A stretch of DNA of 64,000 bases, from contig JASNZL010000008.1 in NCBI GenBank assembly GCA_048499675.1, positions 27-64,026 of the forward strand. Direction: 5' to 3'. Position 1 is the first letter of the stretch. The number at the start of each line of letters is the position of its first letter. Below the pieces are notes generated by a model that was given only the letters and a program-made list of their open reading frames with translations, searched no databases and had not been told where the DNA came from. Source of the DNA: Candidatus Zambryskiibacteriota bacterium (GTDB taxonomy: Bacteria > Patescibacteriota > Minisyncoccia > Phycocordibacterales > WO2-35-19). This document shows positions 5,696-64,000 of the stretch, one piece after another. The position numbers and the translations under genes were made by a program.

Positions 5696-5706
5696 TGTAG
5701 GTTTAA

Positions 5707-12845: not shown

Positions 12846-13010
12846 CGAATTGGTTACGAATAGATACGAACAAGAAACGAGGTACGAAGTAGAATTAATC
12901 TAATTACACTAATTAACCTAATTATTCTAAATAATGACTAATTCTCAGTCCTAAATTTAAAATTGGGCATTGAGATTTATTTAGATTAATTAGAAATTAG
13001 AGTAATTACT

Positions 13011-18454: not shown

Positions 18455-18889
18455 ATGCGTTTTCAAATACCACAATTTATTGATGTAGAAGACCAAATAC
18501 TTGGCCCTTTTACTTTAAAACAGTTTATTTACATTGCAGGAGGCGCAAGCGTTGCTTTGATTTTTGTAACCCTACTTGGTGTTTTTTGGGGACTTTTAGT
18601 TTCTTCTCCAATTGTAATTCTCGCTCTAGCTCTGGCTTTTTACAAAATAAACAACAGACCGTTTATAAACACCCTCGAGTCAGCATTTAAATATATGATC
18701 AAAGACAAACTCTATATTTGGCACAAAAAAGAGCCTGAGGAAAAAGAAGCAGACTCTAGTACCGACAAAAAATTTAGCTCGCTTGTTGTGCCCAACTTAT
18801 CCCAAAGTAAACTCAAGGATATGAACTGGGAATTAGATGTGAAGAAGAAGGAAAACGAGTTACGAGATACGAGTAACGAGATACGATAA
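18455..18889 (+). CDS. small two-TM membrane protein, VirB3/PrgI-like candidate; C-terminus encoded by heptamer repeats (ENELRDTSNEIR)
   Basis: MRFQIPQFIDVEDQILGPFTLKQFIYIAGG followed by two hydrophobic helices; lies immediately upstream of the VirB4 gene, as VirB3 does. Confidence 0.5.
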   Translation: MRFQIPQFIDVEDQILGPFTLKQFIYIAGGASVALIFVTLLGVFWGLLVSSPIVILALALAFYKINNRPFINTLESAFKYMIKDKLYIWHKKEPEEKEADSSTDKKFSSLVVPNLSQSKLKDMNWELDVKKKENELRDTSNEIR

Positions 18890-19192
18890 AAAGATTTTGA
18901 AAATTTAAAATTTAATAAGAGTTAAAACTTAAAAGCGTTTTTGTTTATATAAAAAATTTTAACAGTTAACTCTTTTCATTCCTAGGGTTGTTTTAATCTT
19001 TAAATGATTAATTCAAAATAAAGAATGAATATAACTAATAACAAAGGATATAATACGGTGTATTTAAATTTTTTTATTTTATAAGTGGTGCAAATCAAAA
19101 AATAGGATTATAATCATTAATATAGATTTGGTTGTTTATTTTAAAAATTAATTCGTACTTCGTTACTCGTACCTCGTAACTCGTCCATTTTT

Positions 19193-19813
19193 ATGAAGAA
19201 TGCTACACAAAAATTTGTACCAATAGATGATGTCAGAGATGGCATTGTTATTTTGAAAGAAGGTGGAATGAGAGGGGTCCTTATGGCTTCTTCAATAAAC
19301 TTTTCTCTAAAATCAAACGACGAGAGACAAGCAATCCTGATGCAGTTTCAAGATTTTCTCAATTCTTTGGATTTTTCAATTCAAATACTTGTTCAGTCCA
19401 GAAGATTAGATATTAGACCTTATGTTGCACTGCTTGAGGGACGGCACAAAGAACAAACAAACGACCTTATGAAAATTCAGATAGAGCAATACATACAATT
19501 CGTAAAAAGCTTTACCGAGAGCACAAACATAATGACCAAAAACTTTTTTATTGTCATACCTTATGATGGGGCAATTATCTCTTCAAAAAAAGGAGTATTA
19601 TCTGGGTTTGGGAGTCAAAATAAATCAAAAGAATCACAAGAAGAAGATTTTGAAGAGAGGAAAAACCAACTTGAACAAAGAATGGCAGTGGTTGAACAGG
19701 GACTCGTCCGATGTGGAGTTAGAGTCGCAAAACTCGGAACAGACGAAGTGGTAGAATTATTTTATAAGATATTTAATCCAGGGGAGTCAGAGAAACCTAT
19801 TAAAATTTCGTAG
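19193..19813 (+). CDS. VirB4/TrbE/CagE-family ATPase, N-terminal domain only (5' fragment of a split gene)
   Basis: KFVPIDDVRDGIVILKEGGMRGVLMASSINFSLKSNDERQAILMQFQDFLNSLDFSIQILVQSRRLD and ...NFFIVIPYDG match the conserved N-domain of Gram-positive-type VirB4 proteins. Confidence 0.7.
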   Translation: MKNATQKFVPIDDVRDGIVILKEGGMRGVLMASSINFSLKSNDERQAILMQFQDFLNSLDFSIQILVQSRRLDIRPYVALLEGRHKEQTNDLMKIQIEQYIQFVKSFTESTNIMTKNFFIVIPYDGAIISSKKGVLSGFGSQNKSKESQEEDFEERKNQLEQRMAVVEQGLVRCGVRVAKLGTDEVVELFYKIFNPGESEKPIKIS

Positions 19814-19838
19814 AAATTTTAATTGTAAATAAAACAAA

Positions 19839-20258
19839 ATGAGTTACGAGTTACGAGTTACGAGTTACGAAACAAAAGAGAAAATAAACACTTTTCATGA
19901 TTTAAGAGTGTGGAAAGAAGCACATAATCTGGTTATATCAATTTATAAGACAACTAAAAATTTTCCAAAGGATGAGCTTTTTGGGTTAACTAACCAAATA
20001 AGGAGGTCTGCGGTCTCAATAACATCAAATTTAGCTGAAGGGTTTGGTAGAGAAACAATAAAGGATCGGGTACATTTTTATATTATATCCTTAGGATCAT
20101 TAAACGAAATCCAGAATCAGCTTCTCATTTCAAAAGATGTAGGATACCTAAGTTTAGAAAATTGGAGTAAGCTTGAAGAACAGATTATAATTGTAAACAA
20201 GATGCTTAATGGTTTAATAAAAAGATCCAGATCGTACTTCGTTACTCGTACCTCGTAA
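19839..20258 (+). CDS. four-helix-bundle protein of the 23S rRNA intervening-sequence protein family
   Basis: DLRVWKEAHNLVISIYKTTKNFPKDELFGLTNQIRRSAVSITSNLAEGFGR...SLGSLNEIQNQLLISKDVGYL matches the family consensus. Confidence 0.8.
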   Translation: MSYELRVTSYETKEKINTFHDLRVWKEAHNLVISIYKTTKNFPKDELFGLTNQIRRSAVSITSNLAEGFGRETIKDRVHFYIISLGSLNEIQNQLLISKDVGYLSLENWSKLEEQIIIVNKMLNGLIKRSRSYFVTRTS

Positions 20259-20265
20259 CTCGTTC
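19841..20265. mobile_element. inverted-repeat-flanked insertion splitting the VirB4 gene; carries a four-helix-bundle protein gene
   Basis: left arm GAGTTACGAGTTACGAGTTACGAGTTACGAA (19841-19873) and right arm TCGTACTTCGTTACTCGTACCTCGTAACTC (20231-20265) are near-perfect reverse complements; the arms encode the N- and C-termini of the cargo ORF. Confidence 0.55.
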
Positions 20266-20272
20266 TAAATAT

Positions 20273-22078
20273 ATGTTTGATTTTTTTAAGAAAAAAGAAA
20301 AAGAAAGTTTAACGGCTATTTCAATATTGCCGAAATCTATTACTGAAAGCTCGGAGCTAGAACTACAAGATATTTTGGCACCAAGTGCCTTAAAGGTTAA
20401 TGCAAAAGAGTTAAACCTTGGTGAAAAATTAGTTAGAAGTTTTTTTGTTATATCTTATCCTCGTTTTCTTAATGAAGATTGGTTTGCTCCGATTATAAAT
20501 ATGGATAAAATGTTTGATATTTCAATATTTATACATCCATTAGAAACGGCAAAAATATTAAGAAATTTCCAAAAAAAGGTCGCGGAGGTGCAGAGCCAAA
20601 TAAGAATGAGAGAGGAAAAAGGTTTGGTGAGAGACCCAATGCTTGATACGGCATACCAAGACCTAGAAAACCTGCGTGACGAGCTCCAGCAGGCCCAAGA
20701 AAAAATGTTTGAGGTTGGTTTATATATTTCAGTCTATGCAAACAACAGCGAAGAGTTGGACAAAGTTGGATCAGAAATAAAATCCATATTGGAATCAAAA
20801 CTTGTATACGTAAAACCAGCGCTTTTCCAACAAGAACAAGGTTTTGAGAGTATTCTTCCAATTGCAAAAGATGAGCTAAATGTACACTCAAAAATAAATT
20901 CTTCACCACTTTCAAGTATTTTCCCATTTATATCTTTTGACCTAACTTCTGACAAAGGAATACTCTATGGTATCAACAGGCACAATTCTTCTTTGATTTT
21001 GTTTGATAGATTTTCATTAGAAAACTATAACTCTATTACTTTTGCAAAATCTGGTTCTGGTAAATCATATGCCACAAAATTGGAAATAATAAGGACACTA
21101 ATGTTTGACACAGAAGTAATTGTTATTGACCCAGAAAACGAATATGAATATATGGCCGAAGCGATAGGGGGTAGGTATTTTAATATTTCTCTAAACTCCG
21201 ACCACCACATCAACCCATTTGAACTTCCTGTCCCTGGTGAAGACGAGTCCGGCGCTTCAGTTTTGAGAAGTAAGATTATAAATCTAGTGGGATTGTTTAG
21301 AATCATGATGGGCGGTCTTACAGCTGAAGAAGATGCGATTATAGACCGCGCAATCACAGAAACCTATGCCCTCAAAGATATTACTCCGGATTCTGATTTT
21401 GCAAATGTTGAACCCCCACTTCTTTCTGATTTTGAAATGGTATTGAGTGGTATGGAAGGAGGGGAATCATTGGCCCAAAGACTAACCAAGTACACAAAAG
21501 GAACTTGGTCCAACTTTATAAACAGACCTTCAAACATAGACATAAACAAAAAATTTGTCGTCTTTTCTATTAGAGATATGGAGGACGAACTCAAACCCGT
21601 TGCGATGTATATCGTGACCCACTATATCTGGAACGCTATCAGGAGAAATATCAAAAAGAGACTTCTTGTTATTGACGAAGCTTGGTGGATGATGAAATCA
21701 GAAGATACTGCGTCATTTTTGCTTTCGCTTGCAAAAAGAGGTAGGAAATATTACTTGGGACTTGCCACAATCACACAGGATGTTGATGACTTTTTGAAAT
21801 CACCTTACGGAACTCCCATAATTACAAACTCATCAATTCAAGTACTCTTGAAACAGTCACCAACTTCAATAGACAGACTTCAAGAAGTTTTCAATCTAAC
21901 AGACGAAGAAAAATATCTACTTATAGAATCTGGAGTAGGGGAAGGAATATTCTTTGCTGGTCTCAAACACGTAGCTATCAAAATAATTGCTTCTTATACA
22001 GAAGATCAAATAATCACATCTGACCCATCTCAAATTTTGGCTATGAAAAAAGCCAAAAGAGAAGCAGAACTTGAATAA
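20273..22078 (+). CDS. VirB4/TrbE/CagE-family ATPase, central + C-terminal ATPase domains (3' part of the split gene)
   Basis: FFVISYPRFLNEDWF...DISIFIHP (CagE_TrbE_VirB region), Walker A AKSGSGKSY, Walker B LLVIDEAWWMM, RGRKYYLGLATITQDVDD. Confidence 0.85.
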   Translation: MFDFFKKKEKESLTAISILPKSITESSELELQDILAPSALKVNAKELNLGEKLVRSFFVISYPRFLNEDWFAPIINMDKMFDISIFIHPLETAKILRNFQKKVAEVQSQIRMREEKGLVRDPMLDTAYQDLENLRDELQQAQEKMFEVGLYISVYANNSEELDKVGSEIKSILESKLVYVKPALFQQEQGFESILPIAKDELNVHSKINSSPLSSIFPFISFDLTSDKGILYGINRHNSSLILFDRFSLENYNSITFAKSGSGKSYATKLEIIRTLMFDTEVIVIDPENEYEYMAEAIGGRYFNISLNSDHHINPFELPVPGEDESGASVLRSKIINLVGLFRIMMGGLTAEEDAIIDRAITETYALKDITPDSDFANVEPPLLSDFEMVLSGMEGGESLAQRLTKYTKGTWSNFINRPSNIDINKKFVVFSIRDMEDELKPVAMYIVTHYIWNAIRRNIKKRLLVIDEAWWMMKSEDTASFLLSLAKRGRKYYLGLATITQDVDDFLKSPYGTPIITNSSIQVLLKQSPTSIDRLQEVFNLTDEEKYLLIESGVGEGIFFAGLKHVAIKIIASYTEDQIITSDPSQILAMKKAKREAELE

Positions 22079-22353
22079 AGAAGGGGTAGAAGCTCGTAAA
22101 ATTGAAAAAATTATTCTAATTTCTAATTAACCTAATTATCCTAAAAAAATCCTAAATTCTAAATTCTAAATTTGGAAGTTTTAAATTTTGGATTTTGAAT
22201 TTCTGATTTGCTTGCCCTGTAAAAGCTTGCTTTTATTCGAGTTTAGTATTTCGGATTTAGAATTTAGAATTTTATCGTATCTCGTACTTCGTAACTCGTA
22301 CTTCGTTTGCCTTCATATCGTGTTTTATTTTAAACTCTTGATATAATATCCTT

Positions 22354-39817: not shown

Positions 39818-40261
39818 ATAAATATTATAGCACGCTGTTTGGGATAGAATAAGTTAAAACAACACGAATTAGGGAAACGAGGTACGAGATACGAAGTACA
39901 ATAAAATATTAAATTCTAAATACTAAATCCGAAATATTAAACAAAACTTTAAATTCTAAATTCAAATGTTCAAAACAAAAATTTTATTTTACAATTTAAA
40001 ATTTATAATTCCAGTAACTTGAAAATTAAATTAGTAAGATTGGTCCGCCCGCAACGCCTTAAGTGAAGCAATTGCGGGCAGCAGGTTTCCAAGGACTGTC
40101 CTTGGAAGTGAAAAAACAAATTTTCCAAGGGCTACCCTTGGAAGTGTTTTTAGGATTGTTTTTCAATGTATTTGGTTGGTGTATTGGAACAAAAAAGGCC
40201 TGAAGCCATTGACAAAAGGTTTCAAATTTGCTATAATTAGGGTAGAGAAGGAGAAAGTACA

Positions 40262-40918
40262 ATGAAAAAAGGGTTATTTCTGTCTGTTTTTTTGGCGCTT
40301 GTCCTCTTGGGCGGATGCCGGAAGACCCTCATTGTTCATGTCCCGGTTAGCCCGGGTATGAGCAAGACGGAGGTTGTGAAGGCCGAAAAAGAGGCGACCC
40401 GCCAGGCGGTCGCCGAGAAAAAGATGGAGGAACATGCCTCCAAAGCGGTGAGACAAATTGTCCGCCGTGCCACTCAACAAAACGAGTGGAAGCAAGAGTT
40501 CGCCCTCTCATGTCCCTACGGGGGCTACGAGAGGGTAATCATCCACCCCCACCTAGGAGACCAGTTCACTTATTGGAGGGGTGGGGGAGCCCAAAAAATC
40601 CTCATGCGCAGGGTGGTTATGGTGCATAGGGCGATGAACCCTTACACCAATCTCCCCTGCACCCTCCTCGAGGGTGGCCAGTTGGCGGTGAGCAATATGT
40701 GTCCGGGGGGGAGCATAACACTTGTCTCCTCCATTCCTCCCGTCGTTGGTGGCAGGGCACGGCAGGTAATCTGGACCGCCGAGGCCATGATTGAGGGCAG
40801 GCTCGCTCATAGCGAGTCGTCGCCAGGGATGATCTGGCAGGGGGACATGTGGTGGGAGGTTCAAATGAACCGCCCATCATGGATAATCGAATTCACTCGG
40901 GTGGATAAGGAATTCTGA
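40262..40918 (+). CDS. lipoprotein (lipobox LLGGC) encoded by a high-GC islet; unknown function
   Basis: MKKGLFLSVFLALVLLGGC; GC content visibly much higher than neighbours. Confidence 0.6.
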   Translation: MKKGLFLSVFLALVLLGGCRKTLIVHVPVSPGMSKTEVVKAEKEATRQAVAEKKMEEHASKAVRQIVRRATQQNEWKQEFALSCPYGGYERVIIHPHLGDQFTYWRGGGAQKILMRRVVMVHRAMNPYTNLPCTLLEGGQLAVSNMCPGGSITLVSSIPPVVGGRARQVIWTAEAMIEGRLAHSESSPGMIWQGDMWWEVQMNRPSWIIEFTRVDKEF

Positions 40919-40940
40919 TTCCACGATTCCACCCAAAATC

Positions 40941-40980
40941 AAGGGCGGGGAGCGCAAGCTTCCCGCCCTTTCTACTTTTT
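40941..40980 (+). terminator. rho-independent terminator after the lipoprotein gene
   Basis: AAGGGCGGGgagcgcaagcttCCCGCCCTTtctacTTTTT. Confidence 0.8.
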
Positions 40981-40999
40981 ATGATAGGATAAATGCAAG

Positions 41000-41129
41000 G
41001 TCCCGTAGTAGAAAATGGCATTAAAAGTGTGGTTTGTAAGTATGGATTAAATTGATTATGTTTAAATTACCAACAATAAAAACAAAAATGAGCACCTGCT
41101 TTTAAAGCAATGCCTTTTTTCACTACGGG
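41000..41129. repeat. 130-bp element with 21-bp terminal inverted repeats, copy A, abutting the tsaE start codon
   Basis: GTCCCGTAGTAGAAAATGGCATT ... AATGCCTTTTTTCACTACGGG; second copy at 48931-49059. Confidence 0.75.
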
Positions 41130-41627
41130 ATGCAATATACATCTAAATCAGTCGAAGAGACAGAAGAAATAGCAAAGGATTTTATAAACGATTTTATTTT
41201 ACAGGAGAAAAATAGAGACAAAGCTTTTGTGGTGGGTCTCTATGGCGACTTGGGGGCAGGCAAAACAACTTTTATGAAATGTTTCGCAAAAAATTTGGGT
41301 GTAAAAGAAACTATTCAAAGCCCAACATTTGTCATAATGAAGAAATACGAGTTACGAAGTACGAGTAACGAAGAACGAGAAAAAAAGGAATCTGATTTAT
41401 CGTACCTCGTACCTCGTACTTCGTATGCCTGTTTATATCACATTGATGCTTATAGAATAGAAAAAGACGAGGAAATGTTAAAATTAGGATGGGATGAAAT
41501 AATACACAACCCGAATAATTTAGTTTTTGTAGAATGGCCGGAAATTATAAAAGATATAATGCCACCACATACTAAAATATTTTTTGAACATATAAAAGAA
41601 AACGAGAGGGAAATAAAAATAATTTAA
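41130..41627 (+). CDS. tsaE: tRNA threonylcarbamoyladenosine biosynthesis ATPase TsaE, carrying an in-frame ~80-bp palindromic insertion
   Basis: P-loop GLYGDLGAGKTTF, SPTFVIMKKY, YHIDAYRI. The segment ELRSTSNEEREKKESDLSYLVPRTSYACL is encoded by inverted TACGAG-type arms (41346-41426). Confidence 0.8.
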   Translation: MQYTSKSVEETEEIAKDFINDFILQEKNRDKAFVVGLYGDLGAGKTTFMKCFAKNLGVKETIQSPTFVIMKKYELRSTSNEEREKKESDLSYLVPRTSYACLYHIDAYRIEKDEEMLKLGWDEIIHNPNNLVFVEWPEIIKDIMPPHTKIFFEHIKENEREIKII

Positions 41628-54056: not shown

Positions 54057-54070
54057 TGTAATTAATTATC

Positions 54071-55822
54071 CTATCGGCCACCACCACCGCCACCACCGCC
54101 ACCCCCTCCGGAAAAACCACCCCCTCCAGAGCCACCAGAGCTTGAACCATAACTCGAGTTTGCATTAACTGTATTTGAGAAACTACTCATCATTGATGCA
54201 AAAGTGACCGTGTTTATCGTTTGATTATGACTTGAGTACCAACTAGGTCTTGAATGGGTAATTTCGTAATAATGCCCAAGTTCTTTGTTCCATTCTTTTT
54301 CTTTGTTGAACAATACAGCATAGGGAAGTACTTTTTCGTATAATTTTATTAGTTTTGCAGTATCTCTTGTGTCTATAACAACTTTTTCTGCACCAGTTGG
54401 ACTTTGTAAAACTCGCATTCTTTCTGTCTCAGCCATACTTATGTAGTGCTTAAATCCTTTGAGATAGCGACGCAACTCCAAACCTTTGTCTGTGAGTGGT
54501 TTAAGATGCTTTGATGCTCCGTATAGAGTAACAGCCATAATCAAAAATACGAAATTTAGTGATAAGGCGCCACACACAACTAAACCCAAAGCCCCGTATT
54601 TTAATTTTTTTGTTTTGGATTCATCCACTCTTCTTAATTCATATCTCAGGACAAGTAATTCATCCAATTTCTTTTTATTATCACTGATTCTTTTTCGAAA
54701 ACTTGTGTTATTGCGCAAAGATTTTAGAGCCAGTCTCTGTCCTGTTTGTGGAATTCCATCAAAAAGATCACTAAGCATCTCTTTTTCTTCTTCAAAGAGA
54801 TTATTTAAATCATTTTTTATTTCTATTTCATATTCGGCTTTCTTCCAAAAAGTTTTCTCTTTTAACTCAATTATCTTAATATAATCGCGCACTGCCAAAT
54901 CCAAAAGAAAAGCTGTAAGAACAGAATGAGCACTATTTAGTAAACTGGCAGATGTTATTACACTGACCCCGTCTGGAGGGAAATATTCAGTAACGATTGT
55001 CCCTAATTCCTTGTTTCTATTATGAGACTTGTAATAGAAGTATAAAGACCAAAAAATGATTAATACTCCAGTCATTTGAGCAGTAAGTTGGATTAAAGGT
55101 GAAGCAAAAATAGCGAGTATTTTTTCTATTAAAGTAGGTTTGTAACCGGCAAAAGTTTCGGGATTGAAACCAACTGCAATAGTTAAATTTTCATACGGTA
55201 AAAGATTGGTTGTGCTTGCGGTCAAACCATGAAAAATGGGCGATAGTGTACAGGTTTCAGTTCCGCCACTTGCTCCACGATAACAAGCTACAGATCCAGT
55301 GAGTGATGGTATTAATGATTCTGCTATGTTTATTTGAACATTTAGATTTTCTATAGGAACCCTCCAACCCGTGCCGTTTGTGTCCCAGTAAAATTCATCT
55401 TGGTTTGTATTAGGAAAATATTTTGTAACATCTCGTAAGGTGTAGGTGATTGTATATGTTTGTGGGCCAAGGAGATATTCATCTGTCCCTGTTTCAATAA
55501 CATAATGGTCGCCTTTTGAATATTCGGCATATATTGGTTCTGGTTGGCCGTTGCGTTCTAGAGATATTAATGAAAAGGAGAGCGAATGCCCATCATATTG
55601 ATCTGGGATTTCCCGCACTAAACCCTTGTTTTGGGGAAAAGTGGGGAAGTCTGCAGTGATACGCTCTACCACTCGTAGAGTAGAGTGTCCTTCATTGTCT
55701 TTATCCAAAAAATACTCAATTTCAAATTGACTGATTGAAAAATTATTTACATCAGCCATCACCAAAGAAGCCTCACTAAATAGAGAGAAGATTAGTAGAC
55801 AAATAATCAAAAATTTTTTCAT
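54071..55822 (-). CDS. DUF2207-like membrane protein with Gly-rich C-terminal tail
   Basis: signal peptide, large extracytoplasmic N-domain, TM cluster, C-terminal SSSGGSGGGGFSGGGGGGGGGGGR. Confidence 0.6.
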   Translation of the reverse strand: MKKFLIICLLIFSLFSEASLVMADVNNFSISQFEIEYFLDKDNEGHSTLRVVERITADFPTFPQNKGLVREIPDQYDGHSLSFSLISLERNGQPEPIYAEYSKGDHYVIETGTDEYLLGPQTYTITYTLRDVTKYFPNTNQDEFYWDTNGTGWRVPIENLNVQINIAESLIPSLTGSVACYRGASGGTETCTLSPIFHGLTASTTNLLPYENLTIAVGFNPETFAGYKPTLIEKILAIFASPLIQLTAQMTGVLIIFWSLYFYYKSHNRNKELGTIVTEYFPPDGVSVITSASLLNSAHSVLTAFLLDLAVRDYIKIIELKEKTFWKKAEYEIEIKNDLNNLFEEEKEMLSDLFDGIPQTGQRLALKSLRNNTSFRKRISDNKKKLDELLVLRYELRRVDESKTKKLKYGALGLVVCGALSLNFVFLIMAVTLYGASKHLKPLTDKGLELRRYLKGFKHYISMAETERMRVLQSPTGAEKVVIDTRDTAKLIKLYEKVLPYAVLFNKEKEWNKELGHYYEITHSRPSWYSSHNQTINTVTFASMMSSFSNTVNANSSYGSSSGGSGGGGFSGGGGGGGGGGGR

Positions 55823-56040
55823 AATTCTATTGTACAGGAACTAAGAAATGAGAGAAAGGTTTGTTGGTGTAATTTACTAAAATTGGTATTAACAAAATCT
55901 TACTATTGAAACATTTTTATAATATTTGGGTGAACAAAAAACTTTTATAAATTAGCATCCTGACAATAAATTCTGTTTCAATATATAAAAAAAGAGGGGG
56001 GGCGAGTTTCAAACACAACGCCCCCGCTCTGGGTGTACTA

Positions 56041-56553
56041 CTATTGAAGCATGAAATCCCTTTTTATGCTCCCCCTGGGAATGAAGAACTCGTACTTTTT
56101 TGTCGGATAGTCCAGACCAACCAGTAGTAAGTTTGGATTCACAAACTGGTAGGTGTAAGTCTTGAGTTCTCCCACCTTTCTTTCTTCATCTTCAAAAACC
56201 GTGACATTACCCTCAATTTCAATTTTCCTCGGCCGATAGCCCAACCCGACCGCTTCATAGAAGAAGTAGTGCTGGGTTGTGTCAATACTGCCGGTACCGA
56301 GGTAGAATTGCCCACTGAGACCATCGCTCCCACGTAGGCTCACTAGCCCTGTTGTTTCGGGTCCAGTCCAGTGTTTGGGCACCGCAAGACCAATGACTGA
56401 CGCGAAGCCGATGCCAAAAAAGAACACAATCGACGCGAAGATCCCAAAGAAAAATGTTGCAGCGCAACGGTCAAGGAAACCGTCTGCCTGTCCGTACATG
56501 TCCTTCCATGCAAAGACGACAAAAATCAAAACAAAAAGAAGTGGCCAAAGCAT
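56041..56553 (-). CDS. membrane protein, unknown; lies at the AT-rich to GC-rich transition
   Basis: two N-terminal TM helices. Confidence 0.45.
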   Translation of the reverse strand: MLWPLLFVLIFVVFAWKDMYGQADGFLDRCAATFFFGIFASIVFFFGIGFASVIGLAVPKHWTGPETTGLVSLRGSDGLSGQFYLGTGSIDTTQHYFFYEAVGLGYRPRKIEIEGNVTVFEDEERKVGELKTYTYQFVNPNLLLVGLDYPTKKYEFFIPRGSIKRDFMLQ

Positions 56554-56811
56554 ACTTTATCTCCTGTTTGGAAAGTTTTATATCGAGTTACGAGCGCTCG
56601 ATATTGGTCCTTAACCATAATAGCATACTACATATTAAAAGTCAATGTTTTATAAAATCATTAAATAGTGTCTTTTGGGCCACTATTTCTTCTTGGCTAA
56701 ATAATTTAGATACTTTTTACTCAGAAGAATCTAACTTATTTGTTATTGAGTCTTGGTATTAATTAATTATTACAACGCCGTGCCTCTCTGCTAGTAAAGC
56801 ACCTTGCTTGC

Positions 56812-57113
56812 TCGAGGGCACAAAATATTTTGTTTTTTGTGCCCTCGGTAGGAGTATTTCCCTCGACTCAAAATTTTTTCAGTCAAAAAATTTCGGTCTG
56901 GGCACCGGCTCATGGAAATTTATTTCTAAAAATTTCACATTCCGCCGTTCGATTTCTTACAGAAACTGTACACCTTTTCTATTTTTATTTCGCAAAACTC
57001 ATAAAAATTATCAAAGGTCTTGCGAAGCTTCAAACATTTGCTTCTCACCTACACGCAAGCAAAGCAGTTTGCTTGCTCGAGAGCACAAAATATTTTGTTT
57101 TTTGTGCCCCACT
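56812..57113. repeat. two 10-13-bp-stem hairpins (CGAGGGCACAAAA..TTTTGTGCCCTCG) bracketing a ~230-bp segment that contains the conserved element 56955-57050
   Basis: hairpins at 56812-56848 and 57077-57113; inner conserved block matches 46369-46464 (reverse complement). Confidence 0.6.
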
Positions 57114-57663
57114 CGGGTCTCGGACGTTGGTATACCAAGCAGTATAAGGGTTTTCGGGAGGATTCCCAAGAGTTGAGATGATGCCTCCGCATAGGGGTCA
57201 GTTTTCACCAAACAGGCGCTTGTGCCTTCAAAAACAGAATGAGACAAATGGGACACTCCTTCACGGGTATTTGGCAGTATCTCAAATGCCAACAAATGCC
57301 AATTTTCTGACACCAAAAAGTGACAAAAGTGACACTCTTTGGACACTTTTTCCGTGTCACTTTTTGCTAAAATCTGATGCGAGACAGAGACAGACGAGAC
57401 ACAGGTTAGAGGTATGCCACGAATGTCTCATCTGGAACCCAAATGGCTAAAAAAAAGGATATTTTACCGCCAATGTTACACCATGTGACACCAAAACAGA
57501 TGTGCATGTGTGTCACTTTTTCGTATTTGGTGGCTTTACAGCCACTTTTCCCGGCACTGCGTCGCTCTTGTGCTAAGTATGAAATTATTGTATTTTACGA
57601 CCTAGAGAGTGACGCCTGTCACAAAACCACAAACAGCACATTCACAAACGAAAGGAGACAGAG

Positions 57664-58809
57664 ATGGAAAAGCTCTTAAATCTTGAAGAACTCAGTAGCC
57701 GTCTCGCGACTGTCGACACGATGATCATGCAGCTCATCATGCGTCGCATGGAGCTCGCTGAGCAGGTTGGAAAATACAAACGCCAAAAGGGCGAGCGGAT
57801 TTTCCGGGCAGATATCGAAGATAGGCGTATCGATGCGATCAGGAAATGGGCTGCGACACACCACCTGAATCCGCATTTCGCCGAATCGGTCTTGTACGCA
57901 CTCATCAACGAGTCATGCAAGCTGCAAATGATCCGACTCCAAGAAGAGTCGCTGGAATCAAGTGAGCCTCAGACCGAAGACCAGTGGTATGAGAAGCTCA
58001 AGCGAAACCTTCTTATCCTCACCGAACGATGGTGCAGTACCTACGACTCAAGCTACGAAAACAGCTACTTCGCGACAAAGGCGTACCTGCGGTACGAGCA
58101 TGAACTGCTCACTCGAGAAATCCAACAATTGACTGATACAGAGCTCATGCTCGACCTTGGGTGCGCGACTGGCAGGATGACGTTCCAATGCCACGATGTG
58201 TTCAGGCGCGTCATGGGGTACGACATCAGCCAGCACATGCGGATGATGGCAAACCAGCTTGCTGAAAGCAAGAACTTACACTCGAAGGTCGCTTTCGAGT
58301 GCACGGACATTGAGGATGGCATCCCAATGCTCGATACTTCCGCATCGTTCGTCGTGATGAACCTTGGCACGGCCAGCGACATTCGGGGCATCGGTAAGGT
58401 GATAGATGAAACGCTTCGGGTGCTCAAGCCCGGAGGTCGATTCTTCTTCTCTTTCTACAATCGAGATGCTCTCGTTTATCGCTGGGAGTTCCTGCCGTGG
58501 GAAGCGGGGTTGGCCGCATCAATCAACATCCACCGCGACTCGCTCGACGTTCACTCGAAAAATGACGACCAGGTGGAGGAAGTCATTCCGGTCTACGCGC
58601 GAGCGTATACGTGGGACGAGGTAATGTCGCTATTCTCCGCTCGAGGAGTGGAGGTGTCGCTCACGACATATCCTACCATCAGCGCCATTCTCCCTCACGA
58701 GTTGTTTACCAAACAGCTCGACGTGCAAGAATCGGTCATCGCGATTGATAATGCGCTTGCTGATACTTCAATGGGTGCCTACATCATTGCGACAGGCGCA
58801 AAGCCTTGA
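57664..58809 (+). CDS. fusion protein: N-terminal AroQ-type chorismate mutase-like domain + C-terminal class I SAM-dependent methyltransferase domain
   Basis: N-terminus LEELSSRLATVDTMIMQLIMRRMELAEQVGKYKRQKGERIFRADIEDRRIDAI fits the AroQ pattern L..LR..ID.ID..L..LL..R..L...IG..K; later LDLGCATGRMT (motif I) and VLKPGGRFFF (post II). Confidence 0.6.
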   Translation: MEKLLNLEELSSRLATVDTMIMQLIMRRMELAEQVGKYKRQKGERIFRADIEDRRIDAIRKWAATHHLNPHFAESVLYALINESCKLQMIRLQEESLESSEPQTEDQWYEKLKRNLLILTERWCSTYDSSYENSYFATKAYLRYEHELLTREIQQLTDTELMLDLGCATGRMTFQCHDVFRRVMGYDISQHMRMMANQLAESKNLHSKVAFECTDIEDGIPMLDTSASFVVMNLGTASDIRGIGKVIDETLRVLKPGGRFFFSFYNRDALVYRWEFLPWEAGLAASINIHRDSLDVHSKNDDQVEEVIPVYARAYTWDEVMSLFSARGVEVSLTTYPTISAILPHELFTKQLDVQESVIAIDNALADTSMGAYIIATGAKP

Positions 58810-58831
58810 TGTCACGTTGGATAACACCTAC

Positions 58832-58862
58832 AACGCGCGAGCTTACCACTCGCGCGTTTTTC
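58832..58862 (+). terminator. rho-independent terminator
   Basis: AACGCGCGAGcttaccaCTCGCGCGTTTTT. Confidence 0.8.
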
Positions 58863-58989
58863 TATCGAATCAATTACATACAATTGACAAAGATAACCCC
58901 ACTGTGATAAATTACAGGTGTTGTTCATTTCAGTATATAAAACCCATATCCGATTCCCTTGAGTAATCAAGGGGTTGGGGTCGGATAGT

Positions 58990-59243
58990 TTTGCGGAGTA
59001 ATTCGCGAAACAGGGTGGTCTCTGCATAAGTGGAGACCCGGCTTCCTCCGTAACCATAGGAAAACCGAAATCGGTCGAAAGACCAGAGCCGGTATAAGTC
59101 CCGAGAGACATCAAGGGAAAAGTAAGGTGGCACCGCGGAAACCCGCCCTTACGATATGAGCAGTTTTGCTTGTATCGTGAGGGCGGTTTTTCATTGGGAA
59201 AAATCGCATAGTTCTTTCACATCAACCAAAGGAGAAATATCTC
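58990..59243 (+). promoter_or_regulatory. ~250-nt structured 5' leader with mutually exclusive antiterminator/terminator helices (riboswitch- or attenuator-like) upstream of the GNAT-like gene
   Basis: terminator ACCCGCCCTTACGATA...TATCGTGAGGGCGGTTTTT (59142-59191) overlaps alternative helix GTAAGG...CCCTTAC (59122-59152); several further local helices (GGTCTC..GAGACC; CCCGGCT..AGCCGG). Confidence 0.4.
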
Positions 59244-59936
59244 ATGAAGCTCTCTGAATACGCAACTAAGAATCAACTTGTCACAAAGGCGGGCGTGTAT
59301 AGCGCCTACCACTTAATGCCTGAGCTACTTTCTAATGAGGTTAAAGACTATCTCTTTAACCTTGTCTATCCAGTTGCTCAAAACGCCTTCGGGCAACAGC
59401 ATTCTGAGGAGTTTGCTCACGATGTCAGAACGCATGTTCTTGACCATTCAAATATTTTGATTGTTCAAGACCATACTGGTGCGGTTATCGCATTTCGAGT
59501 CTGGGATATTCTCCACGGCATCGAAAGAGACATCGTCTATCTTGCTGGTATGTGTGTTACTTATGAATACCAGAAGATCGGTCTAGGAAAGGCGTTGATA
59601 CAGGCTGCAATCGATATTGCGCAAGTATCTCACCCGAATTTGGGCTATGTTGTACTACGTACCCAAAATTGGGCAATGCAGAAGAGTTTGTCTGCTATTG
59701 CTGCAGAATCTGGTGTGTACAAGAAGTTTGGCGACACCAACATTGATGAAGACATGCAAGCCGCCGTTAAGATAGTAGCGGATAAAATCAATGATTCCTG
59801 CATCGTGCCTTCTGAGCTTGTGTCGCGAAAAGTCTATGGCAGTAGCTTATATGGCTCGGCGCATAACTATCAGAACGGCTTCGTTGGGCTAGATGTCTCT
59901 AATGGTGATGCAGCTTACTGCGTTTGGCGACGATGA
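59244..59936 (+). CDS. GNAT-family acetyltransferase-like protein
   Basis: motif A-like YQKIGLGKALIQAAI; beta-strand HTGAVIAFRVWDI. Confidence 0.5.
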   Translation: MKLSEYATKNQLVTKAGVYSAYHLMPELLSNEVKDYLFNLVYPVAQNAFGQQHSEEFAHDVRTHVLDHSNILIVQDHTGAVIAFRVWDILHGIERDIVYLAGMCVTYEYQKIGLGKALIQAAIDIAQVSHPNLGYVVLRTQNWAMQKSLSAIAAESGVYKKFGDTNIDEDMQAAVKIVADKINDSCIVPSELVSRKVYGSSLYGSAHNYQNGFVGLDVSNGDAAYCVWRR

Positions 59937-60013
59937 GTCGATCACAAACTAGAGCCATTCTAAGAAACTCGGGTGGCTCTATTTTTTTACAGGGAAATAT
60001 ATATAATTTTACT

Positions 60014-60823
60014 ATGTTACAGAGCATTAAAAAAATACTTATTGTTGGCAGTACGCATGGACACGAAAGGATAGGTCTTGCTGTTATCGAAGAGTTAAAA
60101 AAACTAAATATACCGAACGATCAACTCCGTTTTGAAATTGGCAACCCGAGAGCTTCAGAGAAAAATATTCCCTTTATCGACTCAGATCTCAATCGCATCT
60201 TTCCTGGTAATCCGAATGGTACATACGAAGAACGGCTGGCATTTGAACTATTACCAAAGATCAGGGATGTTGATTTGGTGATAGACATTCACTCAACCAA
60301 TACCACTGATTTATCTGAAAACTCAATGCTTATCGTCACAAAATATGATACCGTCACCAGAGATATTGTTGGCACTATCAATCCTCCGAAAGTTTTGGTG
60401 ATGAAATATAAAAGTGATAGCGCCCTCATTTCGCAAGCACGAATTGGTGTGGCATTTGAGTATGGGAAAGACACGAGCGAATCCGTATTACAAGCTACCC
60501 TGTTCGACATTGCTGAAGTTTTGATTGCCTGCGGATTCATTTCTAGAAATCCATATACAACCACAAAACATAATGAACGTACTGACGCTTTTGAGGTATA
60601 CGATTCATATAAAAAAGACTTTCTCGGGAAGTTTACACTTGCACCCGAAATAAAAAATTTCCAATTAGTCACACAAGGTTCTTTTTTGGGCGTAACCGAT
60701 TCTGGCGTAGAAGTACTTGCAGATGAAAGTTTTGTCCCGATTCTGTTTGGAGAAAACAGATATACGGAAATATTGGGTTTTAAGGCAAAGAAAATAGCGC
60801 CACCCACGAAGGAATGGCGCTAG
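60014..60823 (+). CDS. succinylglutamate desuccinylase / aspartoacylase (AstE/AspA) family zinc hydrolase (start moved to internal ATG)
   Basis: ILIVGSTHGHERIG...DSDLNRIFPG...DLVIDIHS matches the family zinc-binding/catalytic motifs. Confidence 0.7.
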   Translation: MLQSIKKILIVGSTHGHERIGLAVIEELKKLNIPNDQLRFEIGNPRASEKNIPFIDSDLNRIFPGNPNGTYEERLAFELLPKIRDVDLVIDIHSTNTTDLSENSMLIVTKYDTVTRDIVGTINPPKVLVMKYKSDSALISQARIGVAFEYGKDTSESVLQATLFDIAEVLIACGFISRNPYTTTKHNERTDAFEVYDSYKKDFLGKFTLAPEIKNFQLVTQGSFLGVTDSGVEVLADESFVPILFGENRYTEILGFKAKKIAPPTKEWR

Positions 60824-60836
60824 GTTGTTTGCGTGA

Positions 60837-61799
60837 TCAAGAGACAATTCCCTTGATCGCTTGGAGCGTTTGGTGCTGGCTCTGTGGAAGCACATTGCCA
60901 ATCACGTTGTTGAGGACGGTCACTACGCCTTGCGGCTTGGAACCAATCGGATTCACGATGAGAACCATACCTTTGGCAAAGTGCCTGGTGCTGATGCTAA
61001 ACGCATTAGACCGAAACACACTGCCGACGAGCTTGTGGATACCGTCCGGCGTATACCAGTGAGACAGGAAGAAGCCGCTTCTCCCTTCAGTCTGCCCAAC
61101 AATCTGGAGCGCCGCGATGGACGGTATTGCGCCGGAAGAGATTTCTCGCTGCATTGCGGCAAGCGAGTCTCTCACTGCGATCTTCCTGATCTCCTCGCCC
61201 GAAGTTGAGATTTTGGCGCGGATGCCTGTCGATGTGGGCTCATTCGTTTCCGAAAGTTCTACCCAATCGAACAGGAATTCTTCGCCAAGGACCCTCTCGT
61301 TCCGAAGGTACTCATCGTACCCGCAGAAAGGATATCCGACTTGCGGATCGGCCTTGAAGAAAGCCTCGCAGTTGTAGACCCCGATAATGAGTCGTCTGGG
61401 CTTGCGCTCGATTTCTCTGCAAACGTGAGCGATCTCACCCGAAAGGAACACCATCTCCACACCGTCGTCTATGAACGACTTCAGTATGGAAGACTTGGCT
61501 CGATTGACTTGCTGTGGTGCCAGATCATTGAAGACTACTCGAGGAACGTATCCCCCTGTTCGAGAAAATGTATCCTCGAGAAGCATCTTTGGATCACGAC
61601 TCCCAACAGCGCCGCCGAGAGTGACTATATCCTCGCAATCGACTTCTCGATATGCATCAAGGACAGCGTCCATTTCTCCCTGGTTGTCTGTCGTCATTTC
61701 TTCGTTTTCGTACGTGGCTGCCTGGGCGTCCCAGAAGGCCTTTTGGCCTTCAACGGTAAGAGTTGGCTTGCGCCAACCATCTTCTCCTGACTTACTCAT
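60837..61799 (-). CDS. hypothetical protein, weak resemblance to a SAM-dependent methyltransferase fold
   Basis: IVTLGGAVGS...FNDL pattern only. Confidence 0.3.
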   Translation of the reverse strand: MSKSGEDGWRKPTLTVEGQKAFWDAQAATYENEEMTTDNQGEMDAVLDAYREVDCEDIVTLGGAVGSRDPKMLLEDTFSRTGGYVPRVVFNDLAPQQVNRAKSSILKSFIDDGVEMVFLSGEIAHVCREIERKPRRLIIGVYNCEAFFKADPQVGYPFCGYDEYLRNERVLGEEFLFDWVELSETNEPTSTGIRAKISTSGEEIRKIAVRDSLAAMQREISSGAIPSIAALQIVGQTEGRSGFFLSHWYTPDGIHKLVGSVFRSNAFSISTRHFAKGMVLIVNPIGSKPQGVVTVLNNVIGNVLPQSQHQTLQAIKGIVS

Positions 61800-61823
61800 C
61801 TGAACCTCCTGTGGTTTGAGTGT

Positions 61824-62300
61824 TTACTGATGTGTTTGAGAGATGTCCGCAATCGTTGCTCCGATGGCGTTCACCATTTCTTTAGAGCCGATCGCGATTG
61901 TCTTTCGCGGATCACCTGACCCGCAATAGATCAACTGCCGAGCCAAGAGAGCGTTATCCACGATATGTCGCTGGAAGAAGTCATGGAACGGACTCGCGTC
62001 TCCCGGGTTCAGCCCGATTTCTCGGGTGATTTCTGGGCCAGCAAACTTTACCGTTTTCCTTGATACGCCGAGGATGGCAGCGACTTTTGAGAAGTCGACC
62101 CGATTCATACCCGGTAGAATAGCGGCAATGAGGCCAATATTCTTCTGATCAAGGATCACAGTCTTAGCCATTGCGTCCCTCGGAATGTCCAAAGTTTGAA
62201 CGACATCGTCCATTGTGATCACAGGATCATGCTCCATCACCCTCGGAGAATACCCTGAATCTTTGAGTCTCCGTATGATTTTTTCTGTTGACGTTTCCAT
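61824..62300 (-). CDS. YbaK/ProX-type aminoacyl-tRNA trans-editing deacylase domain protein
   Basis: KTVILD, GLIAAILPGMNRVDFSKVAAILG, GLNPGDASPF match the YbaK/EbsC family. Confidence 0.7.
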   Translation of the reverse strand: METSTEKIIRRLKDSGYSPRVMEHDPVITMDDVVQTLDIPRDAMAKTVILDQKNIGLIAAILPGMNRVDFSKVAAILGVSRKTVKFAGPEITREIGLNPGDASPFHDFFQRHIVDNALLARQLIYCGSGDPRKTIAIGSKEMVNAIGATIADISQTHQ

Positions 62301-62400
62301 AGTGCCTCTTTTGGTTTGTGAAGGTGCGTTTTAAGAAAACCCACAATGGATTCCTCGCCGACGATACCATAGCACAATTTTCCGCTTGACACAAGAGACA
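62301..62400 (-). promoter_or_regulatory. promoter/5' leader of the ybaK-like gene; paralogous copy of the trpS leader
   Basis: ~80% identity over ~100 nt with 63458-63570; candidate -35 TTGTGT / -10 TATGGT and a GAGGAA...TTTCTT dyad. Confidence 0.5.
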
Positions 62401-62464
62401 CTACAAAAGAAAACAGGCATTCGGAACCTTGCGATTTCGAATGCCTGTGAGTAAGTAGCTTGTT

Positions 62465-63457
62465 CTAGTAGAGGACGATACCCATCTTCTCCCGAACAAG
62501 CTCGGTGGTTGCCTTGATTCTGGCGCGAGCCTTTTTGCCGCCTTCGTGAAGCACGTTTTTGACGTAATCGTTTTGGCTGGCGAGCTTGACGCGCTTTTCC
62601 TGAAAGGGCTCCAAGATTTTGGCAATGCCGTCAACCAAAAGATGCTTGCAGGCGGCACAGCCGATTTGCGCCGAGATGCACAGTTTCGCGATCTCTCGAC
62701 TCTCGACCTCGCCTTCCGTCACTAGCTCGTGGACAGGATAGACGGATTGACACCGATTGTACGGATCGCCGGGGTCGGAGACGCGAAGACGTTGCGGATC
62801 AGTAATGCCTTTCTTCAGATAGCGATCGCGAATTTCTTCGATGCCGGCATTGATGTCGATGGCATTGTCCGCTTCCGACTTGCCCATCTTCGCGCCGTCA
62901 AGACCGGGTACCTTGATCATCTGCGCCATCATCTCGGGAACGACGAACGTGTCCCCAAAACGCTTGTTGAAACGATTCGCAAGATTGCGAGCCATCTCAA
63001 CGTTCGGCACCTGATCCTCACCAACTGGCACCAGTGTTGCCTTGGGACCAAGAATGTCGGCTGCCATGAGGACAGGGTACGTCACGAGCCCGAGGTTCAC
63101 GTTGTCCGGATTCTTGCGAACCAGATCCTTGAACGTTGGGACCCGTTCGAGCTCACCGAGTGACTGGATCATCGAAAGATACAGGCACAGTTCAGAGATT
63201 TCCGGTACGCTTGATTGAGCGTAAATGATCGATTGCTCCGGGTCGAGACCCGCGGCAATGTAATCCTTCACGATTTCAATCAAATTGCCCCGAAGCTCTT
63301 CTGGATTCTCGAGCGTCGTCAGTGTATGCCAGTCGGCGATGAAGTAAAGGCAGGTATTGCCTGGTTGCTGGAACTTCACGAAGTTTTGTACCGCTCCGAG
63401 AAAGTTTCCGAAGTGGAGGCGCCCTGTAGCGCGGATTCCTGATAGGACTGTTTCCAT
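62465..63457 (-). CDS. trpS: tryptophanyl-tRNA synthetase (class I). The start is placed at the ATG preceded by AAGGAG; the ORF-track start lies further upstream.
   Basis: GRLHFGNFLGAV (HIGH-type), KMGKS (KMSKS), GEDQVPNVE, overall length 331 aa typical of bacterial TrpRS. Confidence 0.9.
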   Translation of the reverse strand: METVLSGIRATGRLHFGNFLGAVQNFVKFQQPGNTCLYFIADWHTLTTLENPEELRGNLIEIVKDYIAAGLDPEQSIIYAQSSVPEISELCLYLSMIQSLGELERVPTFKDLVRKNPDNVNLGLVTYPVLMAADILGPKATLVPVGEDQVPNVEMARNLANRFNKRFGDTFVVPEMMAQMIKVPGLDGAKMGKSEADNAIDINAGIEEIRDRYLKKGITDPQRLRVSDPGDPYNRCQSVYPVHELVTEGEVESREIAKLCISAQIGCAACKHLLVDGIAKILEPFQEKRVKLASQNDYVKNVLHEGGKKARARIKATTELVREKMGIVLY

Positions 63458-63570
63458 CTTTGTCTCCTTTGGTTTGTGAATGAACTGTTTTGAGAAAGCC
63501 ACCATGGATTTCTCGCCGATGTTACCATAACACGATTTTCCGCTTAATACAAGGGTTTCGTCACGCAACC
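63458..63570 (-). promoter_or_regulatory. promoter/5' leader of trpS (copy 2 of the duplicated leader)
   Basis: candidate -35 TTGTAT, 17-nt spacer, -10 TATGGT; dyad CGAGAAATCCATGGTGGCTTTCTC; SD AAGGAG 8 nt before ATG. Confidence 0.5.
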
Positions 63571-64000
63571 ACACCACTCCGTAGAGTGGTGTGGTGTTTC
63601 GGCGGATAGGACTTCTGCCTCTCCTTGGAGATCGGAGCCTCTCGTCGCGTACGACGTTCCCGCCGGCCGGTTAGCCGGACTTTGCCCAATCATCTCACTC
63701 ATCTCCTGTGGCGTACCGCAGACGGGGTAAGTCAGAGGGCTCGCCGGCCGTCTGTACTTAATGATTAGTATTTAAGATTTGTGTAGTCGAGTTACCAACA
63801 GCTTGCCAACTACCCCTCCTGGACTCCTCGGAGGGGTAGCGTCATCAATGTAGCTGCATGACACACACAACAACAGCGCCGTCTGGGGCTACGGCAAACA
63901 TTGCAAGCTCCGCAAGCGTGAAATATTGTCTCTACGCCAGAAAAAGTACCGAACAGGAGGACAAGCAGGTGCTTTCCATCGACTCCCAGATCAAGGAAAT

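Follow-up and report, generated by a model that had tools for sequence, protein, structure and literature searches.

When one stretch of about 100 nucleotides (nt) stands in front of two unrelated genes, does it regulate the pair, or is it there for some other reason? We ask this of a 64,000-nt stretch of DNA (referred to below as the window) from a Candidatus Zambryskiibacteriota bacterium (contig JASNZL010000008.1). Near its end two minus-strand genes, one for a tryptophanyl-tRNA synthetase (TrpRS; gene trpS) and one for a YbaK-like deacylase, are each preceded by a similar promoter-leader module. An earlier sequence-only reading had described two copies of about 80% identity and had concluded that one factor or RNA element co-regulates a synthetase and an editing factor. 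Our answer is that the module is probably a self-contained expression cassette, of which copies have come to stand before the unrelated cargo genes of a mobile island, and we give this reading a probability of roughly 0.6.

The two copies are present where they had been placed, at 63458-63556 before trpS and at 62301-62398 before the ybaK-like gene, with a mean column identity of 81% in a MAFFT alignment. They include an ungapped direct repeat of 93 nt (62303-62395 and 63461-63553, 78% identical, repeat family D11), and sub-patterns of 21-23 nt (n=2) are matched at these two sites alone in the 64 kb, where shuffled sequences lead one to expect 0.00 matches. The TTGT(A/G)T and TATGGT hexamers stand 17 nt apart in both copies, just as first described; the dyad is real and longer than had been noticed; and the common leader is shared through the Shine-Dalgarno sequence (SD) and the ATG into the first codons. 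The parts of the two copies, called wA and wB, are the following, with the promoter elements as predicted.

63458-63556, minus strand: module copy wA, before trpS; covariance model score 83.5 bits
63547-63552, minus strand: wA -35 hexamer TTGTAT, 17 nt from the -10 hexamer
63524-63529, minus strand: wA TG-extended -10 hexamer TATGGT
63492-63514, minus strand: wA hairpin GAGAAATCCA-tgg-TGGCTTTCTC, predicted by RNAfold
63474-63481, minus strand: wA box AUUCACAA
63464-63469, minus strand: wA SD, AAGGAG
63455-63457, minus strand: ATG after wA
62301-62398, minus strand: module copy wB, before the ybaK-like gene; covariance model score 70.5 bits
62389-62394, minus strand: wB -35 hexamer TTGTGT, 17 nt from the -10 hexamer
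62366-62371, minus strand: wB -10 hexamer TATGGT
62333-62356, minus strand: wB hairpin GAGGAATCCA-ttg-TGGGTTTTCTT, with G.U pairs and a bulge
62316-62323, minus strand: wB box CTTCACAA
62305-62310, minus strand: wB SD, AAGAGG
62298-62300, minus strand: ATG after wB
62405-62447, minus strand: intrinsic terminator of trpS, an 11-bp stem followed by UUUUCUUUU; -25.2 kcal/mol, z = -4.6

The similarity sets in 2 nt 5' of the -35 hexamer; its last bases are ATGGAAAC, made up of the start codon and five more. Over the 60 nt beyond either edge of the repeat, identity is at the random level. The sequence-only reading had allowed that the likeness might stem from a tandem duplication taking in coding sequence. 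Since the flanks are unrelated, with identity at chance, and the two genes are not homologous (PF00579 versus PF04073), such a duplication is ruled out. The trpS terminator stands between trpS and the wB promoter; being strong and followed by a U-run, it splits trpS and the gene for the YbaK-like protein into separate transcription units, and each unit has a module of its own.

The next question is "does the module occur elsewhere?" A search with its SD-proximal part (site 57641) finds a third and diverged copy, wC, which the first reading had missed. It lies before a gene encoding a chorismate mutase fused to a methyltransferase (CM-MT).

57564-57663, plus strand: module copy wC; covariance model score 31.8 bits, E about 1e-3
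57568-57573, plus strand: wC -35 hexamer TTGTGC (CTCTTGTGC as the -35 region), 17 nt from the -10 hexamer
57591-57596, plus strand: wC -10 hexamer TATTTT
57609-57622, plus strand: wC hairpin GTGAC-gcct-GTCAC, short and different from the wA/wB stem; read from the sequence, not the RNAfold minimum free energy (MFE) structure
57640-57647, plus strand: wC box ATTCACAA
57652-57657, plus strand: wC SD
57664, plus strand: ATG after wC

The 3' part of wC reads ATTCACAAACGAAAGGAGACAGAGATGGAAA. All three copies fall within the last 7 kb of the window, and no further copy is found in its 57-kb host part, where covariance-model hits reach at most 15 bits with E > 3. The search for more copies of the dyad, which the sequence-only reading had called for, thus yields a diverged module with a hairpin of its own, and the dyad recurs in other genomes.

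To follow it there, we compared 22 genome loci that encode close relatives of this TrpRS (loci and contigs are numbered L001 and so on). The nearest ones have the same upstream module, in several copies as in the window: before trpS and the ybaK-like gene in L003, and before trpS and CM-MT in L004 and L063. A pattern of dyad and box, scanned over a metagenome collection, gave 35 hits. About one third have every part of the module (promoter, hairpin, box, SD and ATG); the other two thirds, with long gaps and without promoter, SD or ATG, were set aside as chance. A covariance model built from 15 copies and run on the window and the collected loci finds 25 copies in total, three of them in the window. 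The module recurs in at least 10 other Patescibacteria-type loci, before non-homologous genes that include a gmk-Ham1 fusion, ndk, a GreA-like gene with tmk, ribonucleotide reductase (RNR), an aldo-keto reductase and a radical-SAM-like gene. A pattern scan of IMG/VR and blastn against plasmids and phages gave no match, and a phage or plasmid origin was set aside. Literature searches for a leader motif in the candidate phyla radiation (CPR, or Patescibacteria) or for this gene cluster found nothing relevant.

Because the module stands before nucleotide-metabolism and other unrelated genes, it is not tied to tryptophan or to aminoacylation, and it is not an amino-acid-specific switch. Of the proposed co-regulation, then, one half holds up: the same promoter and leader head two separate units, which may well be expressed in parallel through one shared signal. 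The other half does not, for the signal is not specific to a synthetase and its editing partner, and to tie it to that pair or to a T-box-type mechanism is wrong.

We turn to the DNA on which the copies sit. The last 7 kb of the window have a G+C content (GC) of 0.46-0.53, with 0.50-0.53 in the 61-64 kb interval; in the host part, which encodes FtsH, UvrD, PBP1, PolA, PilB and TyrRS, it is about 0.33. They belong to an island of about 8 kb and about 50% GC, with a serine recombinase and an adjoining tRNA, in a Patescibacteria host chromosome of 33% GC. Window 57049-64000 is matched at 100% identity by a Logan contig (L001) that extends beyond the window end, where it contains the 442-aa large serine recombinase, a tRNA-Arg(gcg) and a tRNA-like remnant ending in the 12-mer CTCGAGGGCACA. 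This 12-mer is found at both borders, in the left repeats and at the end of the remnant beside tRNA-Arg (L001 2290-2342).

56790-57109, no strand: left border zone with two 55-nt direct repeats (56790-56844 and 57055-57109, family D19), containing CTCGAGGGCACA
63858-64000, plus strand: start of the large serine recombinase (442 aa), which leaves the window and is complete in L001 2426-3754; NCBIfam CcrB/XisF-like

A compositional step, a recombinase, a tRNA-adjacent insertion and a repeated border sequence, by which a genomic island is recognised, are all found. The host PolA is about 70% identical to Paceibacterota/Zambryskibacteria homologues. The TrpRS of the island is 92% identical to that of a Moraniibacteriota metagenome-assembled genome (MAG), 90% to that of a Taylorbacteria MAG, and 70-95% identical to the TrpRS of many Patescibacteria MAGs. 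From the GC step, the recombinase/tRNA border and the different relatives of TrpRS and PolA, we conclude that the three copies sit on a horizontally transferred island.

What do the copies have in common? Read 5' to 3', the module is a predicted promoter of the sigma-70 type (-35 hexamer TTGTAT, TTGTGT or TTGCAT; 17-nt spacer; TG-extended -10 element, TGnTAnnnT), a stem-loop, a box, an SD, and the start with one or two further codons. The TT(G) of the -35 element, the TG at -15/-14 and the TA..T of the -10 element are invariant or nearly so, at fixed spacing, over 15-24 copies; among 15 diverse copies the same can be said of the TT of the -35 element, the TG and the A of the extended -10 element, the stem and TTCACAA. 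Transcription is predicted to start about 7 nt after the -10 element, and the stem begins 9 nt after the -10 hexamer, hence only a few nt from where a start at the usual distance would fall. The stem-loop has 9-10 bp with the core GAAAUCC / GG(A/G)UUUC and a loop of 3-5 nt that is not conserved. Downstream of the stem are about 12 unpaired A-rich nt.

The box is 8 nt long, almost invariant and single-stranded: (C)AUUCACAA, or (C)ATTCACAA in its register-fixed form across copies. It stays the same among loci that differ by about 30% elsewhere. Its distance from the hairpin is 10-13 nt (17 in L057), and that from the SD is 0-13 nt; steady towards the one and loose towards the other, the box therefore goes with the hairpin or the promoter and not with the ribosome-binding site. 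Neither the hairpin loop nor the 5' tail contains a complement to the box. A loop-box pseudoknot or a second helix around the box was considered and rejected (the loops are not conserved, and just a 3-4-bp helix forms in some copies), as was an antisense promoter at the box, where the reverse strand, read by eye, has no TA-containing -10 element.

The stem is under a base-pairing constraint. In 24 distinct copies 87% of the cells are paired, and double-sided changes occur in 6 of the 10 pairs. None of 500 shuffles reaches these values, and slid registers give at most 62% paired. In some copies the stem has been replaced with its pairing retained, by GAAACCG/CGGUUUC in L040 and by GAAAAACUC/GAGUUUUUC in L060. 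The core stem has about 12 G.U cells on the sense strand versus a single A.C cell. These strand-specific wobble pairs, together with a variable spacing of the half-sites, argue for a hairpin in the mRNA and against a duplex operator.

How would such a cassette work? We infer that it supplies transcription initiation, that its 5'-terminal stem-loop would protect the mRNA from decay that depends on the 5' end, and that the open A/C-rich stretch with its strong SD would give an accessible translation-initiation region. Three units of the island (trpS; the ybaK-like gene with a gene for a 320-aa protein; CM-MT) would then each be expressed independently of host context and insertion site, and all in parallel. 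When the gene content of the module-bearing loci is compared, no regulator gene is common to the islands. An invariant box without a shared island regulator implies recognition by a factor present in many hosts, and the box may be read by such a factor of Patescibacteria (the ribosome, an RNA polymerase accessory factor, an RNase or an RNA-binding protein). The cassette would spread, or be homogenised, by duplication or recombination within islands: copies are 91-100% identical within one locus, the promoter spacer and the loop included, and about 70% identical between loci, and this near-identity within a locus points to recent duplication or homogenisation inside each island.

Several points weigh against the expression cassette. 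A generic promoter scan did not list the module hexamers, and those of wA agree with the E. coli consensus at 3/6 and 4/6 positions (7/12). The promoter, the start site and hence the "5'-terminal" position of the hairpin are predictions. The covariation alignment was fitted to the model and its sequences are related, so that a few events are counted many times. The folding energy of the whole leader is no better than that of shuffles for the window copies (z = 0.07 and 0.45), as is expected of one short hairpin, yet thermodynamics alone gives the structure no support. In wB the hairpin forms only if a bulge is allowed, and in wC the MFE structure is a different one. L025-L057 are metagenome contigs, and their taxonomic assignment is presumptive. 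A role in expression only explains neither the invariance of the 8-nt box nor the placement of copies as inverted repeats around cargo.

The box leads to a further possibility, which we put forward tentatively: the hairpin and the AUUCACAA box may form a so far undescribed leader RNA element, specific to Patescibacteria and read by a conserved host factor (an RNA-binding regulator, an RNase or a factor of the Nus/NusG type), so that the module-headed genes would make up a mobile, co-controlled regulon. If true, the element would be a universal "expression adaptor" for tRNA-adjacent, inverted-repeat-bracketed cassettes that move between very different ultra-small bacteria, with auxiliary TrpRS, genes like that of alanyl-tRNA synthetase (AlaRS), a YbaK-like deacylase, ndk, gmk, tmk and RNR as its cargo.

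Could the hairpin and box instead be the operator of a dedicated regulator, protein or RNA, that switches the module-headed genes together? A processive antitermination or Nus-type leader (a hairpin and then a boxA-like sequence, the order of rrn leaders) and the site of a specific RNA-binding repressor are the candidates. The box is invariant where other positions drift, it is tied to the hairpin and not to the SD, the sequence of the stem is conserved beyond what pairing alone would need, and there are GreA-like genes among the cargo. In rrn leaders a hairpin precedes boxA, and UGYACAUUCACAA agrees at 10/13 positions with UGCUCUUUAACAA, which we take to be the rrn boxA of E. coli. The mismatches to boxA lie in its best-conserved half, however, the downstream units are short (1-2 kb) and leave little for processive antitermination to act on, and the islands share no gene for such a regulator. 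We regard a dedicated operator as unlikely.

A different kind of explanation is that the repeat is kept for mobility at the DNA level, serving a cassette-like mobile unit as its terminal inverted repeat or as a handle for recombination, and that the promoter is incidental. In five loci (L003, L004, L025, L029 and L063) two facing copies bracket the cargo, with arms of 80-462 nt that are 81-100% complementary; the bracketed segments have 46-54% GC and their flanks 30-38%. The window is laid out alike, with wC reading rightward and wA leftward, and a serine recombinase adjoins the trpS copy both here and in L021. Outside the module a non-coding "arm" of 250-350 nt is conserved in six loci (L003, at 5700-5900 and 11220-11350; L021, L029, L030, L037 and L060). 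It starts right after the 3' end of a tRNA (..ACCAAGTTAGAACCTATTTTCAAAAT..) and reaches to the module, contains several GC-rich hairpins, and has no match in Rfam; in L029 it is part of perfect 462-nt inverted repeats.

Facing copies and a conserved outer arm are what mobility would lead one to expect, but the details of the copies fit it less well. Almost all of the 25 copies end in an SD and a start codon about 10-30 nt from the box, and the module is without exception directed into a gene. One copy (wB) is internal, L040 has a divergent pair, and the window and L025 have copies without the outer arm. The inner edge of the repeat is codon 2-3 of a gene and not the end of an element, and conservation extends beyond the module. 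No target-site duplications were observed, the excess of G.U pairs on the sense strand points to RNA, and the perfect repeat of L029 could be an assembly artefact. The SD and ATG at nearly every copy, the internal wB, the divergence in L040, the copies without an arm and the edge at codon 2-3 favour expression as the primary constraint, and mobility as the reason for the repeat seems to us quite unlikely.

The dyad might also be read as a double-stranded DNA operator for a dimeric repressor, overlapping the transcription start. L003 and L004 do have a near-perfect palindrome, AGAAATCC-N3-GGATTTCT, at about +3 to +22, a classical operator position, and the sequence of the arms is conserved. Against this, the spacing of the half-sites varies (3-5 bp), A-to-G changes often fall in one arm, where they keep the pairing of the RNA and break the symmetry of the DNA (8 U.G versus 11 U-A at one pair), and whole-stem replacements (the L040 copy at 1-60, L060, wC) retain the pairing and not the sequence, all of which makes this operator improbable.

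Last, and largely refuted, is the proposal that the leader responds to tRNA or tryptophan (as a T-box, an attenuator or a riboswitch) and makes TrpRS and the deacylase follow the charging status: the pairing of these two genes is suggestive, an ATG in the wA hairpin loop opens a frame into trpS (the gene caller used it, giving 346 aa), and a T-box-like leader lies in the same island, but neither an aptamer nor a T-box can be built from a single short hairpin whose loop varies, and the module heads genes of nucleotide metabolism and other unrelated functions. From predicted start to ATG the trpS leader has about 60 nt and one hairpin of 9-10 bp. The search for a T-box or other RNA motif that the sequence-only reading had suggested comes back empty, as neither this leader nor the 300 nt upstream matches any Rfam family at E <= 10; over 61700-64000 cmscan at the same threshold lists just a ctRNA-like hairpin at the trpS terminator and a chance miRNA hit. 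At Rfam gathering scores the whole window gives only tmRNA and tRNAs. Nor are the features of a riboswitch present in a single stem with a non-conserved loop, with neither a multi-helix or pseudoknotted aptamer nor an Rfam match. A leader peptide with attenuation was rejected as well: the loop ATG is in frame with trpS only in wA and is missing or out of frame in wB, L003, L029 and L040.

The T-box-like leader itself belongs to the neighbouring operon.

58937-59200, plus strand: T-box-like leader upstream of the GNAT/AstE-like operon; has GGUGGCACCGCG; terminator at 59143-59186

It scores 29.4 bits against RF00230 (E = 9.5e-4, under the gathering score of 93), with a fold z of -7.7. The T-box sequence GGUGGNACCGCG is found only here, at 59120-59140, and not in the trpS and ybaK leaders; this is the sole leader of a tRNA-sensing type in the island, and it is not part of the module. 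Its invariant Stem-I bulge GGGGUUGGG contains UGG, which makes tRNA-Trp a candidate effector. At least three other loci (L011 7131-7353, L063 11113-11347, L062 ~1195-1560; 29-35 bits) have a T-box-like leader of conserved structure in the syntenic position, before GNAT- or GCS2-like and AstE-like genes.

We return to the island for the genes that the cassette would serve. Its units read inward from both sides and converge at 60795-60823.

57664-58809, plus strand: CM-MT, chorismate mutase (CM_2) fused to a class-I methyltransferase, 381 aa
59244-59936, plus strand: GNAT acetyltransferase
59924-60823, plus strand: AstE/aspartoacylase-like gene
60795-60822, minus strand: terminator-like hairpin
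60837-61799, minus strand: gene for the 320-aa protein, probably co-transcribed with the ybaK-like gene (24-nt gap, own SD)
61824-62300, minus strand: YbaK/ProX-like aminoacyl-tRNA trans-editing domain protein, 158 aa; Pfam PF04073, 6.9e-17
62465-63457, minus strand: trpS, bacterial-type tryptophan--tRNA ligase, 330 aa; Pfam PF00579, 2.9e-54; TIGR00233, 256 bits, over the cutoff

The YbaK-like protein has relatives in the PDB (1wdv; 2dxa, YbaK) and scores under the NCBIfam YbaK cutoffs. The 320-aa protein has no sequence match in Pfam, NCBIfam or the PDB, and only 77 homologues were found, the few named ones coming from candidate-phyla bacteria. Its AlphaFold2 (AF2) model, with a mean confidence (pLDDT) of 92.9, has as best Foldseek matches the S-adenosylmethionine methyltransferases CcbJ, EgtD and GNMT at a template-modelling (TM) score of about 0.4, and by this predicted fold it resembles class-I methyltransferases that act on amino groups.

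The same genes keep company in other Patescibacteria. A recurrent set (window 57664-63457; L003-L023, L060-L063) comprises the conserved TrpRS, CM-MT, the AstE/aspartoacylase-like protein, the YbaK-like protein and the 320-aa protein; a second, divergent TrpRS (35-51% identity) often adjoins it, and L003 also has an amino-acid dehydrogenase and an aminotransferase. This set may handle tryptophan or a derivative of an aromatic amino acid. The cargo of L029 (8562-9584, 11059-12174) and L035 (1001-2194) has two partial AlaRS catalytic-domain genes (PF01411), a peptidase S51 and a radical-SAM-like gene, and synthetase-like paralogues seem to be common cargo of module-bearing segments. In L063 two genes for 150-aa NUDIX proteins (9443-9895 and 14863-15315) lie on either side of the TrpRS/GCS2-like/AstE-like/CM-MT segment, which suggests insertion into a NUDIX gene, or its duplication.

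Some further observations concern the borders of the island and the host DNA. All four GTGACAC heptamers of the 64 kb fall at 57329-57516, just inside the left border, in two GTGACAC-N18-GTGTCAC palindromes about 156 nt apart; the wC hairpin (GTGAC/GTCAC) resembles them, and they may be sites for the recombinase or an accessory protein. In the 5' coding region of the serine recombinase, 20 bases (63898-63917; L001 2225-2244) are 95% identical to the anticodon-arm region of tRNA-Arg(gcg). Two loci from other samples (L065 and L066, compared with window 54059-62351) join 59761 of the window to 56949, and 56835 to 55876. This variant is without CM-MT, the T-box-like leader, part of the GNAT gene and a host segment; either the island truly exists in this form or the joins are an artefact of assembly. 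The host part has families of short repeats with TCGTA(C/A)(C/T)TCGT-type units near gene boundaries (18838-22313, 39860-41424, 47377 and 51463; among D1, D4 and D17) and, at 13008-13097, a tandem of three 30-nt units, ACTTGTCCCGCGTAGTTTTAACGAAGTGGG.

Why should such a module matter? The CPR bacteria, to our knowledge, cannot be grown alone, and almost nothing is known of their promoters, their leaders or their control of transferred genes. The module is a concrete, alignable signal that would mark independently expressed cargo on islands moving between CPR lineages. It gives a means of locating such islands and the genes they carry, among them second copies of aminoacyl-tRNA synthetases and the nucleotide-salvage genes on which these reduced organisms depend. 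It also offers a test case for the reuse of a promoter as a route to the expression of foreign genes, and a defined RNA with which to look for a binding partner. Should it be merely a constitutive cassette, it makes a useful annotation and no surprise. We find it moderately interesting, as a conserved promoter-leader that mobile islands of a little-understood group of bacteria have in several copies, and whose invariant box and inverted-repeat arrangement merit a closer look.

We close by comparing the module with known systems. The leaders of E. coli ompA and of B. subtilis aprE and ermC stabilise their mRNAs with a 5'-terminal stem-loop. Like them, the module has a stable hairpin near its (predicted) 5' end, an unstructured region and a strong SD; unlike them, it conserves the sequence of the stem itself across hosts and has the 8-nt box. 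The rrn boxB-boxA and JUMPStart/ops leaders, of which ops marks horizontally acquired operons, also place a promoter-proximal hairpin before a short conserved single-stranded box, but the box of the module differs from both boxA and ops, and the units downstream are short. T-box leaders (RF00230) sit upstream of aminoacyl-tRNA synthetase genes in Gram-positive-type bacteria, whereas the trpS and ybaK leaders are without Stem I, specifier loop, T-box sequence and terminator/antiterminator. The "morons" of prophages, cargo genes with a promoter and a terminator of their own inside a horizontally acquired element, are likewise self-contained units in acquired DNA; here, in contrast, all of the module-headed units use copies of one promoter-leader, and nothing matches a phage or plasmid.

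The closest likeness is to the putative mobile promoters (Matus-Garcia, Nijveen and van Passel 2012; commentary PMC3575422). These are upstream regions that stand before non-homologous genes in one genome and agree to at least 80% over 50 nt or more; they are also common to distant taxa, match no known RNA family and spread by an unknown mechanism. By its sequence the module falls under this published operational definition (PMC3575422). In the MAFFT alignment the stretch from CTTGT to GTGG agrees at 47/55 positions, blastn reports a 47-nt match of 87%, the two copies as wholes (93-105 nt) are 78-81% identical, and the downstream genes are not paralogous (TrpRS, PF00579; YbaK-like, PF04073; CM-MT). 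It shares with these promoters the similar upstream regions before non-homologous genes, the occurrence across taxa and the lack of a known RNA family. It differs from them in that it spans the whole 5' untranslated region into the first codons and contains a covarying hairpin with an invariant box, and in that it is tied to the higher-GC island cargo of the Patescibacteria, a group outside the 2011 genome set in which the putative mobile promoters were surveyed.

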